IMG/VR virus record: IMGVR_UViG_3300009710_000010
Span: 1 to 64,000 of that record
Source of the DNA: a virus
Lineage: Duplodnaviria > Caudoviricetes
DNA length: 64,000 nt
Strand: one strand, 5' to 3'
Made by a program: the position numbers and the translations under genes. The notes under the pieces were generated by a model. That model was not told the origin of the DNA. It worked only from the letters and a program-made list of their open reading frames with translations, and made no database searches. Positions 24,952-50,388 of this stretch are shown in pieces (position 1 is the stretch's first letter; every line of letters starts with the position of its first letter).

Positions 24952-25023
24952 GGCGCCAGGTAGGACTCGAACCTACAGTCTCCCAGGTATCTACCCGAGG
25001 TTTTACCATTAAATTACTGGCGT
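24952..25023 (-). tRNA. tRNA-like RNA with an atypical 8-nt anticodon loop (Ile-GAU-like or pseudo-tRNA)
   Basis: ACGCCAG TA ATTT AATGGT AAAA C CTCGG GTAGATAC CTGGG AGACT GTAGG TTCGAGT CCTAC CTGGCGC C: perfect T arm, 6/7 acceptor pairs, no encoded CCA. Confidence 0.65.
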
Positions 25024-32106: not shown

Positions 32107-32444
32107 GATAAAGGATCTATATCACTATGAGCCGGGGCGGAACCCTTGATGCTTATATAGGATCTAAATTAGGTGCTACCGCAGCGCGAAGCACCGGCGA
32201 GCGGGGGGTTTTAGCTGGTGCCATCTGCAATATACGGACTGCATTTTATGGGCTATACCGCTTAAATAGGATCTGGATGTACGCATTTCAAAATTATGTT
32301 GACAAATCAACCAGGTGGAAGCTATTATAGGATCTATTAGATAGCGCTGGTAGCGCGCCGGCGCCGTCTTGGCGCAGCGATAGCGTCTCATAGTGGTATA
32401 ATATAGTTTTGACCTTATGACTATACTCAGATCCTATTTAAGCG
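32107..32444. repeat. Divergent control region with five ATAGGATCT-type boxes, including a perfect 17-bp inverted repeat (32259-32275 / 32428-32444)
   Basis: gataaaggatct 32107, gcttatataggatct 32151, cgcttaaataggatctg 32259, gctattataggatct 32321, inverted cagatcctatttaagcg 32428. Confidence 0.8.
32299..32402 (+). promoter_or_regulatory. Two rightward promoters inside the inverted-repeat-bounded segment
   Basis: TTGACA(32299)-18-TATTAT and extended -10 TGGTATAAT (32394-32402). Confidence 0.55.
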
Positions 32445-32447
32445 CAA

Positions 32448-32945
32448 TTGGAGCATGCTGTGCAATGTAAACGATGTAAATCATGTATGGCGAATTTGCC
32501 GTTATCTGCATTCGGTGTTTCTCGACATGAGAAGGATGGGATGCGTCCTACATGCTTCGAGTGTCAAGCTCAGTATCCACGCCTTAAACGTAAAGCCAAA
32601 TATAAGGATCTACGTTCTCATATAGATGATTCTGTTATTAGATCAGTTCGTATGCAGAATATAGCTGTTCTTGATACGGCTTTAAAATCCACATTAGAGG
32701 TTCGAGCTCTTAACTACTTGACCAAAGTTCCATATAAAGTTTTCTTTGGACCATCTTCAGTTAATGGAATGCACTCTATTGCCTTTTTCGACTTTAATTC
32801 AGTCTTATACCGTGAATTTATATTCTCAGGTGGAGATGCGAATATCCAAGAGATTATATTAAACATATTACGTGATCATAATCTTAGGCTAGAATATACC
32901 GATGGAGATTTAACGACTTCTCTGTCGACTATATATTATGTCTAA
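32448..32945 (+). CDS. Zn-finger-containing hypothetical protein
   Basis: CKRCKSC...DG.RPTCFEC; overlaps the start of the next gene; exact start uncertain. Confidence 0.6.
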   Translation: MEHAVQCKRCKSCMANLPLSAFGVSRHEKDGMRPTCFECQAQYPRLKRKAKYKDLRSHIDDSVIRSVRMQNIAVLDTALKSTLEVRALNYLTKVPYKVFFGPSSVNGMHSIAFFDFNSVLYREFIFSGGDANIQEIILNILRDHNLRLEYTDGDLTTSLSTIYYV

Positions 32946-33396
32946 ACGCGTTACTACTCAAAAATTATTACAGCTTAGATCCAGAATGGTGAAAGAAGCC
33001 ACTCAGCGTTTTCATACAGATCCTGAGGGTATTGCTTCCATATATGTTATACGCCTCTTAGAGGGCCTACATAAGAAAGCCACCGTCAGTCAAGCTTACA
33101 TCGATATTGTCAGGTTAGAATCCGGTAGAAAAGCCTCTTACGAAGCAAAGGTAGCTCATATATTAGAATTACATGAGTCTGGCCGAATGGTGGAATTAGT
33201 TGAAACGTACGGTCAAGAGTTCGAAGCTAACTATACGATTACAGATAGCTTTATGGTTTTAAGCGGTTGTTTTAATCCTAGAAATCCTAATCAAACTAAT
33301 GGATGGCAGTTCACTAATTTAGAAGATGCTCTTAAAAAGAAGTTCTTATTAATTTACTACCGAGTTTACGACCATTATGTGAGAAATGTCCAATAA
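32938..33396 (+). CDS. Chimeric ORF: sigma-factor N-half (aa 1-65) joined to the C-half of an unrelated protein
   Basis: aa 28-65 (DPEGIASIYVIRLLEG..ATVSQAYIDIVR..SGRK) resemble sigma region 2; aa 66-152 align to ORF 162..644. Confidence 0.65.
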   Translation: MSKRVTTQKLLQLRSRMVKEATQRFHTDPEGIASIYVIRLLEGLHKKATVSQAYIDIVRLESGRKASYEAKVAHILELHESGRMVELVETYGQEFEANYTITDSFMVLSGCFNPRNPNQTNGWQFTNLEDALKKKFLLIYYRVYDHYVRNVQ

Positions 33397-33747
33397 TACA
33401 TCCAAAGAACGTATTAAAGATCTAGTATATATTTAATGCGTTCTATCTCTTTGGTGACTATTTGATGAATCCTACTTTCAGTCACCCCAGCTTCTTCTGC
33501 AATCTCAGCGTATTTATAGCCCAATAAAACCTTATCAAAGATAGCCTTATATTTAGGCTTTACAAACTTCAAAGCTAAATGTAAGTCTAACCGATCATCC
33601 ACACTTACGTTAAGGACTTCAGGCTGGTTTTCTATATACGAAGCTTGCTCATCAGACGAAGCTTGCTCATCAGACGAAGCTTGCTCATCAGACGAAGCAA
33701 CCTGGTTTATACTCTTCCGTTTGTCATAAGACTTAAAGCCTTTTCTA
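33126..33747. mobile_element. Candidate invertible segment (622 bp) bounded by in-frame TAGAAAAG inverted repeats
   Basis: TAGAAAAG at 33126-33133 and CTTTTCTA at 33740-33747, both read t-AGA-AAA-G (Arg-Lys) in their ORFs. Confidence 0.55.
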
Positions 33748-33899
33748 TGAAGCTCTTGTTGAGCTTTAATTTCGTTAAATTTTGCTTGGATTGCGTTTGC
33801 TTCATTATTGTAAAGAGTGAATTCTGCACTAGATAAATCTTCACGGTCTAACTGACGTTCTAACCACTTAAGTCTTGCTTCTGGGTTTTGACGGTCCAT
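33414..33899 (-). CDS. Chimeric ORF: coiled-coil N-half (aa 1-53) joined to a sigma-70 region-4 C-half
   Basis: ALKFVKPKYKAIF...LLGYKYAEIAEEAGVTESRIHQIVTKEIERIK is a region-4 HTH; no region 2 in this ORF. Confidence 0.75.
   Translation of the reverse strand: MDRQNPEARLKWLERQLDREDLSSAEFTLYNNEANAIQAKFNEIKAQQELHRKGFKSYDKRKSINQVASSDEQASSDEQASSDEQASYIENQPEVLNVSVDDRLDLHLALKFVKPKYKAIFDKVLLGYKYAEIAEEAGVTESRIHQIVTKEIERIKYILDL
33638..33698. repeat. Perfect 18-bp tandem repeat x3.4 (ACGAAGCTTGCTCATCAG), coding ASSDEQ
   Basis: Units start at 33638, 33656, 33674; partial unit at 33692. Confidence 0.95.
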
Positions 33900-34000: not shown

Positions 34001-34377
34001 TGGTGGACCTGGAGGGAGTCGAACCCTCGTCCGCAAGACATTACTCTCAAGACCTTTTACATGCTTAGGCTATTTTAAAGACCAGCTCCCAGTCTTAGGG
34101 GCGATCTGGCTTCAAACCATTTCACCCTCCACCATCTGATCTTTACAGGCGTCAGAATTCCTCAAGCTAGTTTAAAAGTCCAGCTTAAATGACTCTTTTT
34201 GATACTTTCTGTTTCGAGGTTGTATCCACCCAATCAAAGCTAACTGCAATTAAGCAGCGTTTTGAAATGCGAAATCGTTAGATTCTGCATTTATAAATCG
34301 AAGCAGGTTTTAACCGTCCACTTCACCGGTCGCATGATTCTAAGCCTATTTCTCCACGTCGAAACCATGGCAGGCCC
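34001..34377 (-). ncRNA. ssrA: tmRNA (one-piece), tag peptide AESNDFAFQNAA
   Basis: 5' GGGCCTG-CCATGGTTTCGAC; 3' GAGGGTTCGACTCCCTC-CAGGTCC-ACCA with G3.U alanine pair; ATAAAT|GCA resume context; tag ORF 34288-34250 ending GCT GCT TAA. Confidence 0.95.
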
Positions 34378-38390: not shown

Positions 38391-38552
38391 TCATTTTCGT
38401 TTATCCTTATACTTCGGTTTTGTTTTACCGTATTTACCTTTACGTTTAGCGTTCTCACCTTTGTTAGGTCTACAGAAAGAACAGTTTAAATCTTTACGAC
38501 GCTCCCGATCGTCAACGGTGGAATTAGTATTAGGTTCTCTATTTTTACCCAA
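38391..38552 (-). CDS. Small basic CxxC protein
   Basis: Hand translation MGKNREPNTNSTVDDRERRKDLNCSFCRPNKGENAKRKGKYGKTKPKYKDKRK. Confidence 0.45.
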   Translation of the reverse strand: MGKNREPNTNSTVDDRERRKDLNCSFCRPNKGENAKRKGKYGKTKPKYKDKRK

Positions 38553-38853
38553 CTGAACCTCTGCGTTTTGCTTCTTCCACGACTGGACAGACTATTTGAC
38601 CATGGATTTTGTATTGATCAAATAGTTCATATTCATGAAGTTTATTATAAAGAGTTTTAATAGTAACCCCTAAACTAACTGCAGCCCGTGTTTTATTCCC
38701 TTTGTGAAGTTTTAATGCTTCGATAATATGAAGTTTTTCCATTTGAGCTAATGTTAAAAACGGGGGATCTACTCGATCATTGACCGGTCTAGTTTCGTCT
38801 ATCTTAAGTTTTAATTCAGATCCTTTTGGGAGCTGAGGAATTTCATCACTCAT
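38545..38853 (-). CDS. Fis-family (HTH_8) DNA-binding protein
   Basis: LAQMEK.HI..AL....GNKTRAA..LGV..KTLYNKL.EY. Confidence 0.85.
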   Translation of the reverse strand: MSDEIPQLPKGSELKLKIDETRPVNDRVDPPFLTLAQMEKLHIIEALKLHKGNKTRAAVSLGVTIKTLYNKLHEYELFDQYKIHGQIVCPVVEEAKRRGSVG

Positions 38854-40149: not shown

Positions 40150-40689
40150 TTACGCATAAAGTTTTCCTTCAATCCAGATTTCATTATTAATAATTTGAGA
40201 TACATGACCTTTTGAAATCTTAAACCCTTCAACCAGCTTTGAATACGAAGCACCCATTTTATGAAGGTATCTGATTGTTCTTACGGTTTCCCAATCTAAA
40301 CGGACATTTCCCATAACTGGAGGTTTCCCACCATCTTTACGGAATCTATGGTAATTATTTTTGGATTGAGTCACTAATTCTAAGTTCTCTGGAGAGTTAT
40401 TGTAGCCGTTATCATCAATGTGATTAATTACTAAATCTATTTCTAATCGGCCTTTGAATTTAGCGTAAATGATTCGATGAACTTGAAGCATGCGCCCAAA
40501 ATACTTCACAGTATAATAATCTCGGCGACCACTTCCGGCAAGTCTCCATACATTGTTTACTGATACTTTTCCGGTTTTGGTTATTCGAGTCCAAACTGTT
40601 CCATCAGCACGGACTTCGTAATTAGGATCTTTTAATAATTCGTAAATGTAAGAATCATTTGTGCAAGTTAATTGTCCAGATCTTCCCAT
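40150..40689 (-). CDS. HNH (NUMOD4/HNH_3-like) endonuclease with C-terminal HTH
   Basis: VHR.I...F.G......INH.D.N..NN...NLE.VT...N..H; V..IR.......Y..L...F.IS...VS.I.....W. Confidence 0.8.
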   Translation of the reverse strand: MGRSGQLTCTNDSYIYELLKDPNYEVRADGTVWTRITKTGKVSVNNVWRLAGSGRRDYYTVKYFGRMLQVHRIIYAKFKGRLEIDLVINHIDDNGYNNSPENLELVTQSKNNYHRFRKDGGKPPVMGNVRLDWETVRTIRYLHKMGASYSKLVEGFKISKGHVSQIINNEIWIEGKLYA

Positions 40690-48750: not shown

Positions 48751-50388
48751 GTGGAAGTGTCTAAGAAAATCGTTACTAAAGATGAATTACAAGAACCTAA
48801 ACGCAAAGGTCTTAAGCAAGTTGCTGGTATTGTAAAAAGAACTTTGGGTCCAGGTGGACTTCCAATCGTTATTCAACGCGTAGGACAAACTCTCGAAGGA
48901 ACTCCTTTGGGACCAAAAATCACAAAAGATGGTGTAAGTGTAGCTGAAGAGTGTTCTTCTCCAAATGAAGAAGAAGATATTATAATTCAAGCTGTAAAAG
49001 GAATTTGTAGAAAAACAGTAAATACTGCAGGCGATGGAACGACTACAGCCATAGTTTTAGGTGAGGCTTTAGTAGAGGCAATGGACGCGGAACTTCAAGC
49101 TAATCCAGATCTAAACCCCCAATTAGTTAAAGAATCTTTAGAGTCCGCCTCAAAAGAAGTAATTAAGAAACTTAGAAAGTTAGCAACTCCAGTTAAGTCA
49201 ACAAAAGTAATTAAACAAGTTGCAACTATCTCTGCGAATGGGGATGAAGAGATCGGCCAAATTATCGCTGATGCCTTTGACCATGTGGGTGTAGACGGAG
49301 TTGTAACTGTAGATGAAGGTTCAAATAATAAAGTGACTTTAGATAAAGTTGATGGGTATCAATTCCAGCGTGGAGCTGAAGGTCGAAATGCTTTCTTTAA
49401 TAATAAAGAAAACACACAGTTTGAAGCAACTGATGTAAGTCTAATTATTTATGATGGTCGTTTAATTTCGTTTAATCAACTTATTCCTGCATTAAGACTT
49501 CTTAATGGGGTGGAAAATGGTCCAATGGGTGAGCAAGCTACAAAAAAGGCACCACCTTTGGTGATTATTGCCAATGAATTTAGTCCAGAGGTACTTCAAT
49601 TCTTATTGATTCAAAAGGATCAAGGTGGAATGGTAGTTGTTCCAGTTCTTGGACCAAACACGACCAGCGTACGATCGGGTTACTATGATGATTTAGCTGC
49701 GTATTCTGGAGGAACTCGACTGGGTAATGGTGCCCGAAACCTAGAATCAATTGAAGAACAAGACTTTGGATTGGTTTCAAGAGTCATCATTAATAAATAT
49801 AAAACTACCTTTTATGAAGGTCAAGGTGCCGAAGACGATATTTTGGCAAGAGTTAACCAATTAAGAGCTGCAAAAGAGGAAGCTGAATCTCCGTACGATG
49901 CTCAAGTTTTGAATGATAGAATCGCAGCTCTAACTAACGGGATCGCGAAAATCGGTGTTGGTGGTGCAACTGAATTTGAAATTAAAGAAAAATATGACAG
50001 GATTGAAGATGCTCTAAATGCCGCACGGGCAGCTATTCAAGAAGGTGTAGTTGCGGGTGGCGGTTCAACTCTATTAAGAATTGCTAGAAGTTTGAACTCT
50101 GAAAAGAGCGTCGGCCATAGAATCTTGCAAAGAGCACTTCAAGCTCCATTTTATCAGATTTTAGAAAACATAGGACTAAAAGAAGATAAAGTTGCAGAAC
50201 TAGCTTCTCAGATGACTAGATCTGATAAAATAGTATATGATGCTAGAAACAAGGAAATTAAAAGAGCACTAGCTGCAGGGATTATTGATCCTGTAAAAGT
50301 TACTAGAACTGCATTAGAAAATGCAGTAAGTATTGCATCACTTTTATCTACTGCAGGTGGTGCAATTATTTATAAAAACCCAAAATAG
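48751..50388 (+). CDS. groEL: Phage-encoded GroEL-like chaperonin
   Basis: TLGPGG, ITKDGVSVA, AGDGTTTA, ATISANGD, KEK.DRIEDAL.A.RAA..EG.V.GGG, GIIDP.KVTR.AL.NA.S. Confidence 0.95.
   Translation: MEVSKKIVTKDELQEPKRKGLKQVAGIVKRTLGPGGLPIVIQRVGQTLEGTPLGPKITKDGVSVAEECSSPNEEEDIIIQAVKGICRKTVNTAGDGTTTAIVLGEALVEAMDAELQANPDLNPQLVKESLESASKEVIKKLRKLATPVKSTKVIKQVATISANGDEEIGQIIADAFDHVGVDGVVTVDEGSNNKVTLDKVDGYQFQRGAEGRNAFFNNKENTQFEATDVSLIIYDGRLISFNQLIPALRLLNGVENGPMGEQATKKAPPLVIIANEFSPEVLQFLLIQKDQGGMVVVPVLGPNTTSVRSGYYDDLAAYSGGTRLGNGARNLESIEEQDFGLVSRVIINKYKTTFYEGQGAEDDILARVNQLRAAKEEAESPYDAQVLNDRIAALTNGIAKIGVGGATEFEIKEKYDRIEDALNAARAAIQEGVVAGGGSTLLRIARSLNSEKSVGHRILQRALQAPFYQILENIGLKEDKVAELASQMTRSDKIVYDARNKEIKRALAAGIIDPVKVTRTALENAVSIASLLSTAGGAIIYKNPK

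Follow-up and report, generated by a model that had tools for sequence, protein, structure and literature searches.

Inversions and other rearrangements that rewrite genes are known in several well-described forms. In the gene-altering programmed inversions and intragenic invertons reported by Milman et al. 2023 (PMC9881135) and Chanin et al. 2023 (PMC10028968), the repeats measure 11-22 bp or more, an invertase is usually encoded nearby, each clone holds mixed orientations, and the targets are specificity genes (hsdS, tail fibres, SusC/D). The sigK/skin system of Bacillus subtilis and Clostridioides difficile excises a large element by means of its own serine recombinase, SpoIVCA, at defined att sites in a terminal cell. 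Gin (phage Mu), Cin (phage P1) and Hin with Fis rely on a serine invertase, 26-bp sites and an enhancer, with tail-fibre ends as the target; Fis is a cofactor of Hin/Gin-type invertases. Sigma factors made of two chains also exist, namely SigO-RsoA of B. subtilis and gp55 with gp33 of phage T4, which are evolved partners whose binding to RNA polymerase has been shown. Illegitimate inversions at microhomologies usually destroy the genes in which they occur. Here we describe a locus in a 94.5-kb virus contig (IMG/VR record IMGVR_UViG_3300009710_000010, 82% complete), of which 64,000 nt were analysed as one stretch, hereafter the window. Judging by comparison with homologues, a predicted sigma-factor gene and an unrelated gene that faces it have swapped their 3' halves at this locus through one inversion, and the resulting reciprocal, in-frame chimeras are real.

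Homology of the two chimeric reading frames

Two convergent open reading frames (ORFs), A and B, whose stop codons are separated by 17 nt, each contain the 8-bp sequence TAGAAAAG, which codes for Arg-Lys in both and stands in the same codon phase. The features of the locus are listed below with their strand; P0001 and P0002 are natural homologues that are discussed after the list.

32448..32945, + strand: gene for a Zn-ribbon protein with an endonuclease VII/HNH-like N-terminus (PHROG endonuclease VII, E value 7.7e-8, residues 4-54); first gene of the operon
32938..33396, + strand: ORF A, 152 aa, a chimera of a sigma N-terminal domain (residues 1-65) and the C-terminal alpha/beta domain of a 139-aa family (residues 66-152)
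33414..33899, - strand: ORF B, 161 aa, a chimera of the N-terminal helices of the 139-aa family (residues 1-53) and a sigma linker and region 4 (residues 54-161)
32938..33132, + strand: sigma region-2-like domain of three helices, the last being the AYIDIVRLESGRK helix; residues 1-70 of P0001/P0002 are 74-82% identical
33126..33133, + strand: left crossover microhomology TAGAAAAG, R64-K65 of ORF A
33740..33747, - strand: right crossover microhomology, reverse complement of TAGAAAAG, R52-K53 of ORF B
33134..33739, no strand: 606-bp segment, inverted with respect to every relative, containing the 3' halves of both genes and the 17 nt between their stop codons
33414..33739, - strand: sigma linker and region-4 helix-turn-helix (HTH); the C-termini of P0001/P0002 are 67-72% identical
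33748..33899, - strand: N-terminal helical part of the 139-aa family (RLKWLERQLDREDLS...YNNEANAIQ...), with the break inside the family's long helix
Junctions in the present state: GAATCCGG-TAGAAAAG-CCTCTTAC and GAGCTTCA-TAGAAAAG-GCTTTAAG
Junctions with the sigma gene intact: GAATCCGG-TAGAAAAG-GCTTTAAG and GAGCTTCA-TAGAAAAG-CCTCTTAC

The stop of the Zn-ribbon gene overlaps the start of ORF A (ATGTCTAA). The DNA between the two repeats measures 606 bp, and the span that includes both of them 622 bp. A preliminary description of this DNA, made from its letters, had given coordinates and residue numbers for the ORFs and repeats, all of which proved correct on re-checking.

The evidence for the exchange comes from relatives, which we sought with ORF A and ORF B among 5.8 billion protein clusters. 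Two proteins were matched by both ORFs, P0001 (163 aa) and P0002 (161 aa), and in each of them the counterpart of ORF A 1-65 runs collinearly into that of ORF B 54-161, the junction reading ...RLESGRK-GFKSY.... Three further proteins of 139 aa (P0004, P0005 and P0006) represent the reciprocal product, in which the counterpart of ORF B 1-53 comes first and that of ORF A 66-152 second. Profile searches extended both families. For the sigma family, 278 relatives were found among 1.84 billion representatives; nearly all of the 150 members listed are 140-220 aa long and match collinearly from end to end, and ORF A is one of very few matches among those 150 that are confined to the first 75 positions of the profile. 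The 139-aa family profile returned 19 matches, which were collinear with the exception of the window's own ORF A (P0003). Two other proteins, P0168 and P0169, were considered as further chimeras and rejected, being distant full-length members of the 139-aa family with a different N-terminus.

We then inverted 33134..33739 in silico and scored the products against both family profiles. As they stand, ORF A matches positions 1-75 of the sigma profile together with positions 48-136 of the 139-aa family, and ORF B matches positions 2-66 of the 139-aa family together with positions 61-159 of the sigma profile. After the flip, the 173-aa product fits the sigma profile in a single domain that covers positions 1-159 of its 167 (166.7 bits), and the 140-aa product fits the 139-aa family profile at positions 2-136 of 139 (201.9 bits). 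End to end, the 173-aa and 140-aa products are 73-74% and 60-64% identical, respectively, to natural proteins. The DNA of the closest relative, L003, whose flanking genes are 75-93% identical to those of the window, places the breakpoints directly: L003 4741-5199 aligns with window 32679-33136 (+), L003 5189-5488 aligns with window 33747..33412 (-), and the two aligned pieces overlap on the 8-mer. It is this homology, with breakpoints against relatives falling exactly on the 8-mer, and not the repeat itself, that lifts the observation above chance.

The preliminary description had proposed that a sigma gene is split over ORF A and ORF B, that one inversion at the 8-mers would rebuild it, and that a 173-aa fusion would result. 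That proposal is borne out, as natural full-length sigma homologues pass the predicted junction without a gap and the fusion is recognised as a single sigma-family domain with end-to-end hits. The window has no chain on which both sigma domains stand together; such chains occur in relatives and after the in-silico flip. No other copy of the sigma gene was found in the 94.5-kb record. Elsewhere, the locus had no DNA or protein match among INPHARED phages; pattern searches of IMG/VR with ORF A, ORF B and the sigma alignment yielded no relatives, and the same search with the 139-aa alignment yielded a single contig that was already known. The exact sequence of ORF B had no entry in the protein collection searched.

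Identity of the two parent families

The C-terminal domain of the split protein is sigma region 4. Of 60 family members, 51 matched Pfam Sigma70_r4 (best E value 2.1e-11), and the family profile matched region 4 of solved sigma factors (WhiG, FliA, SigL and SigW) with E values down to 1.9e-12. ORF B alone matched the PHROG sigma factor (E value 1.2e-8) and came just below the Pfam cut-off for Sigma70_r4_2 (E value 1.4e-4; 21.8 bits against 25.7). A structural model of P0002, with a predicted local distance difference test score (pLDDT) of 93, superimposed on region 4 of SigD with Z 9.6 and a root mean square deviation of 2.1 over 61 residues.

The N-terminal 65 residues are probably sigma region 2. 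The Pfam matches here are weaker: Sigma70_ECF in 9 of 60 members and Sigma70_r2 in 2 of 60 (E value at or below 0.01), with P0007 matching Sigma70_r2 weakly at 0.13. The P0002 model has helices at 7-23, 29-41 and 50-62 in this domain, and its top Foldseek matches are all whole extracytoplasmic function (ECF) sigma chains (SigL, SigE and SigH), with probabilities of 0.92-0.99 but E values of at least 0.02. Whole-chain structure alignments to sigma factors span residues 1-161, with 113-131 residues aligned and Z 8-9.4. The (A)xIDxxR helix was aligned by profile to AMIDELR of the 6pfj sigma chain, below significance at -1.4 bits. Taken with the region-4 evidence, these comparisons point to an ECF-like minimal sigma factor of about 161-173 aa with a predicted role at RNA polymerase. 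The crossover falls in the loop directly after the last region-2 helix.

Within the linker, the window carries a perfect 18-bp tandem repeat of 3.4 copies (33638..33698, - strand) that encodes (ASSDEQ)n. P0001 and P0002 have a single ASSEDQ at this position, and the expansion is therefore recent.

The partner family of 139 aa had no match to Pfam, PHROG, an Atlas feature or a PDB fold. Its model (pLDDT 89) comprises an alpha/beta domain, a short helix and a 45-residue helix (21-65). The crossover cuts midway through the long helix instead of between domains.

Because region 2 and region 4 are each left whole on separate chains, we considered whether a fixed inversion could have yielded working products, either ORF A and ORF B as a two-chain sigma factor, perhaps joined by the two halves of the 139-aa protein, or ORF B as a region-4-only competitor or repressor. 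Both ORFs have kept their own start signals (the overlap with the upstream gene for ORF A; AAGGAG 7 nt before the ATG for ORF B), the known two-chain sigma factors offer a precedent, and the genotype is abundant enough to have been assembled in five samples. Against this, any association of the two chains or binding of RNA polymerase is purely hypothetical, the cut midway through the 139-aa family helix does not obviously favour re-association, and the available copies are near-identical, so that a signal of selection is unmeasurable. We judge working products of this kind to be improbable.

The crossover repeat occurs at chance level

By itself the 8-bp repeat does not exceed chance. The window holds six copies of TAGAAAAG where 5.95 would be expected, and of the 72 inverted-repeat pairs in the surrounding 2 kb, the 8-mer pair is not among the 25 longest. 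Beyond the 8 bp the two sites resemble each other only weakly, agreeing at 4 of the following 7 bases. Between the two restored genes, read in coding sense, there are five 8-mers in common, of which three are in phase; the corresponding values in codon-shuffled controls are 5.8 and 3.0. At least one in-phase site was present in 91% of the codon shuffles; any convergent gene pair of similar size would therefore offer one by chance. Nor is the 8-mer conserved: L008 reads GGA AGG AAA, and the relatives of the 139-aa protein use other codons there.

Related loci and the proposed ancestral layout

Two loci from the closest relatives, L003 and L008, carry the Zn-ribbon gene and an intact sigma gene in tandem, and the start of the sigma gene overlaps the preceding gene just as that of ORF A does. 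The slot facing sigma, which in the window is taken by the 139-aa gene and a gene for transfer-messenger RNA (tmRNA), is occupied in both by a converging ADP-ribosyltransferase gene (L003 5483-6865 and L008 1036-1359, both on the - strand). The encoded protein, of 449-460 aa, has the ADP-ribosyltransferase domains PF01129 (ART) and PF03496 (ADPrib_exo_Tox). The alternation between this gene and the 139-aa gene with tmRNA is a module swap. The tmRNA itself is phage-encoded (34001-34377, - strand), lies immediately upstream of ORF B, matches the full Rfam model RF00023 with 98.7 bits, and has the ARAGORN tag peptide AESNDFAFQNAA.

Two other loci, L016 and L017, lack a sigma gene between the Zn-ribbon gene and the 139-aa gene that converges on it, and several relatives are without sigma at this locus. 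G001, a 54-kb fragment that is 47% complete, had no sigma homologue, a weak negative given that it is a fragment. Both genes were found together at none of 8 related loci. The un-inverted convergent pair was thus not found among these loci, and the ancestral layout is reconstructed from geometry and flanking synteny rather than observed.

The region upstream of the Zn-ribbon/sigma operon has repeats of its own. A perfect 17-bp inverted repeat (32259-32275 / 32428-32444) in the stretch 32107-32444 encloses 152 bp that hold a near-consensus promoter, TTGACA-18-TATTAT, at 32299-32328. At the equivalent place in L003 (4295-4502), a perfect 14-bp inverted repeat with different arms flanks 180 bp. 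The core, TAGGATCT, is present 12 times in the window against 2.2 expected. The cassette may consist of operator sites, form a structured element or serve as an invertible promoter.

Recombinases and the orientation of the segment

We searched the whole 94.5-kb record, which includes baseplate genes, a helicase, GroEL, ribonucleotide reductase and DNA polymerase, for four recombinase families: PF00239 (Resolvase), PF00589 (Phage_integrase), PF07508 (Recombinase) and PF01548 (IS110 transposase). None matched at an E value of 1 or less, and the controls matched; no integrase was found in the record.

To determine the orientation of the segment we turned to public assemblies. The exact Zn-ribbon protein that flanks the site occurs on five contigs and the exact ORF A also on five, with the same length profile and the same two places shown, and on the grounds of that shared profile and those places we took them to be the same five contigs. 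All five public assemblies of the genotype are in the inverted state. Identity to the window is 99.985% for L004 and 100% for L005, two of these contigs, and three of the five are 50-200 kb long and run unbroken through the site. The inverted state is the consensus of the population and probably fixed.

These results bear on two other explanations of the locus. The preliminary description had interpreted it as a recombinational ON/OFF switch of the sigma factor. In a programmed, reversible switch of this kind, a phage or host recombinase would flip 33134..33739 between a state with intact sigma and 139-aa proteins and a state with the two chimeras, and the assemblies would represent a majority OFF state. 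In its favour, both orientations give two open frames and the chimeras show no decay. The phage also encodes a Fis-family HTH protein (38545-38853, - strand; 102 aa; HTH_8 PF02954, 47.5 bits) without an AAA+ domain, a cassette flanked by inverted repeats is conserved upstream of the operon in the window and L003, and real intragenic invertons with short repeats and no identified invertase have been reported (PMC10028968). Yet the repeat is at chance level and not conserved, no recombinase of the four families is present in the record, and neither the gene pair nor a conserved repeat is kept by any relative (0 of 8 loci with both genes), which the preliminary description had named as a check. 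The five assemblies show one orientation, with three long contigs unbroken across the site, and the break in mid-helix is unlike the module boundary that a designed switch would have. We therefore regard a programmed reversible switch as unlikely.

A second explanation is that the join was made in the laboratory or the computer, as a chimera at a microhomology that is not in the phage. The window is a metagenome assembly, and whole-genome amplification does make inverted chimeras at short microhomologies. The preliminary description had listed this among its alternatives, and it finds little to sustain it here: the same state is carried by five contigs, whose sample records differ (those of the two shown being from ENA and JGI), both junctions are reciprocal and exact, and 8 bp is far under the k-mer sizes of assemblers. 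An artefact is very improbable.

Origin of the inversion

What remains is the alternative that the preliminary description had called a fixed one-off inversion, and of the readings considered it fits best. On balance we hold it probable that a single, recent, illegitimate inversion took place at a chance in-phase microhomology and is now fixed in this genotype. The ancestor would have carried, in order, the Zn-ribbon gene (+), the sigma gene (+), the converging 139-aa gene (-) and the tmRNA (-). One inversion of 606 bp, heritable and recent, would have occurred in the ancestor of the genotype, the exchange arising by template switching or break repair at the chance 8-bp microhomology with no dedicated invertase. 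Both frames would have stayed open only through the coincident codon phase of the two 8-mers. The genotype would have been left without a single-chain sigma factor of this family, a loss that was probably tolerated because the sigma factor is accessory in this phage group, several relatives lacking it at the locus.

A number of points weigh against this account. Neither chimera has lost a conserved residue of its parent families or acquired a stop or a frameshift; such intact chimeras fit a very recent event, and they fit equally a maintained function or a reversible state. Assemblies hide minority orientations, and the recombinase search covered the phage record alone, which is 82% complete. 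The intragenic invertons of Bacteroides show that repeats of about 11 nt can suffice where no invertase has been identified (PMC10028968). The ancestor is a reconstruction, since none of the relatives was found to carry the convergent pair un-inverted. Finally, with no second sigma copy in the record, a phage that needed the sigma factor would be crippled. Even so, we give little credence to a working device in a lytic phage, be it an invertase-driven sigma toggle or a two-chain sigma joined by the partner halves, and a recent structural mutation in an accessory regulator is the most likely description of the locus.

The locus is an unusually clean natural case in which an inversion at a chance 8-bp microhomology shuffles the domains of unrelated genes and leaves both frames open, with each parental form documented in related phages, one gene at a time. 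It would represent a one-step origin, in a phage, of new two-domain proteins and of a sigma factor split into region-2 and region-4 chains. If the chimeras work, they would be a natural experiment on sigma modularity; a segment that flips would make this the first phage transcription factor with an inversion switch.

Other features of the window

Three further features of the window were noted in the course of annotation. A 179-aa HNH_3 endonuclease (40150-40689, - strand; 50.1 bits) has a weak region-4-like HTH at its C-terminus and is likely a homing endonuclease. ARAGORN called a tRNA-Ser with anticodon AGA at 24952-25023 (- strand). The phage-encoded GroEL-type chaperonin lies at 48751-50388 (+ strand; PHROG 5725, E value 5.6e-115).

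Comparison with known systems

The closest geometry is that of the programmed inversions and intragenic invertons, which likewise have inverted repeats inside two facing coding sequences and swap their 3' parts in frame. Here, by contrast, the repeat is 8 bp long and at chance level, no invertase was found, a single orientation is seen, and the partners are unrelated genes. We have not filed the locus as a programmed inversion in the sense of PMC9881135: the geometry is the same, whereas three of the four defining features tested (repeats that stand out from chance, a recombinase in or near the locus, and a pair and repeats conserved in relatives) were not found. As to the fourth, orientations that coexist in one population, the five assemblies all show the inverted state, behind which a minority could be hidden.

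With sigK/skin the locus shares a sigma gene stored in two pieces that one recombination restores. It differs in that the event is a 606-bp inversion with no element and no recombinase found, and in that a reciprocal chimera is formed on the other strand. Because the pieces lie 606 bp apart on opposite strands, an inversion is required to join them, and the excision that is typical of skin has no counterpart here. The resemblance to Gin, Cin and Hin with Fis is that a phage inversion alters the C-terminal part of a protein and that a Fis-family HTH gene is present; in place of their serine invertase, there is no Resolvase domain in the record. As in SigO-RsoA and T4 gp55/gp33, region-2-like and region-4-like functions stand on separate polypeptides, but here the chains are a rearrangement product known from sequence, each half being fused to foreign sequence.

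The illegitimate inversions mediated by microhomology are alike in using a few bases of chance inverted homology, in a single event that leaves a fixed orientation. What sets this locus apart from them is its outcome: full-length, in-frame chimeras with their domains intact, in a phage that is apparently thriving.

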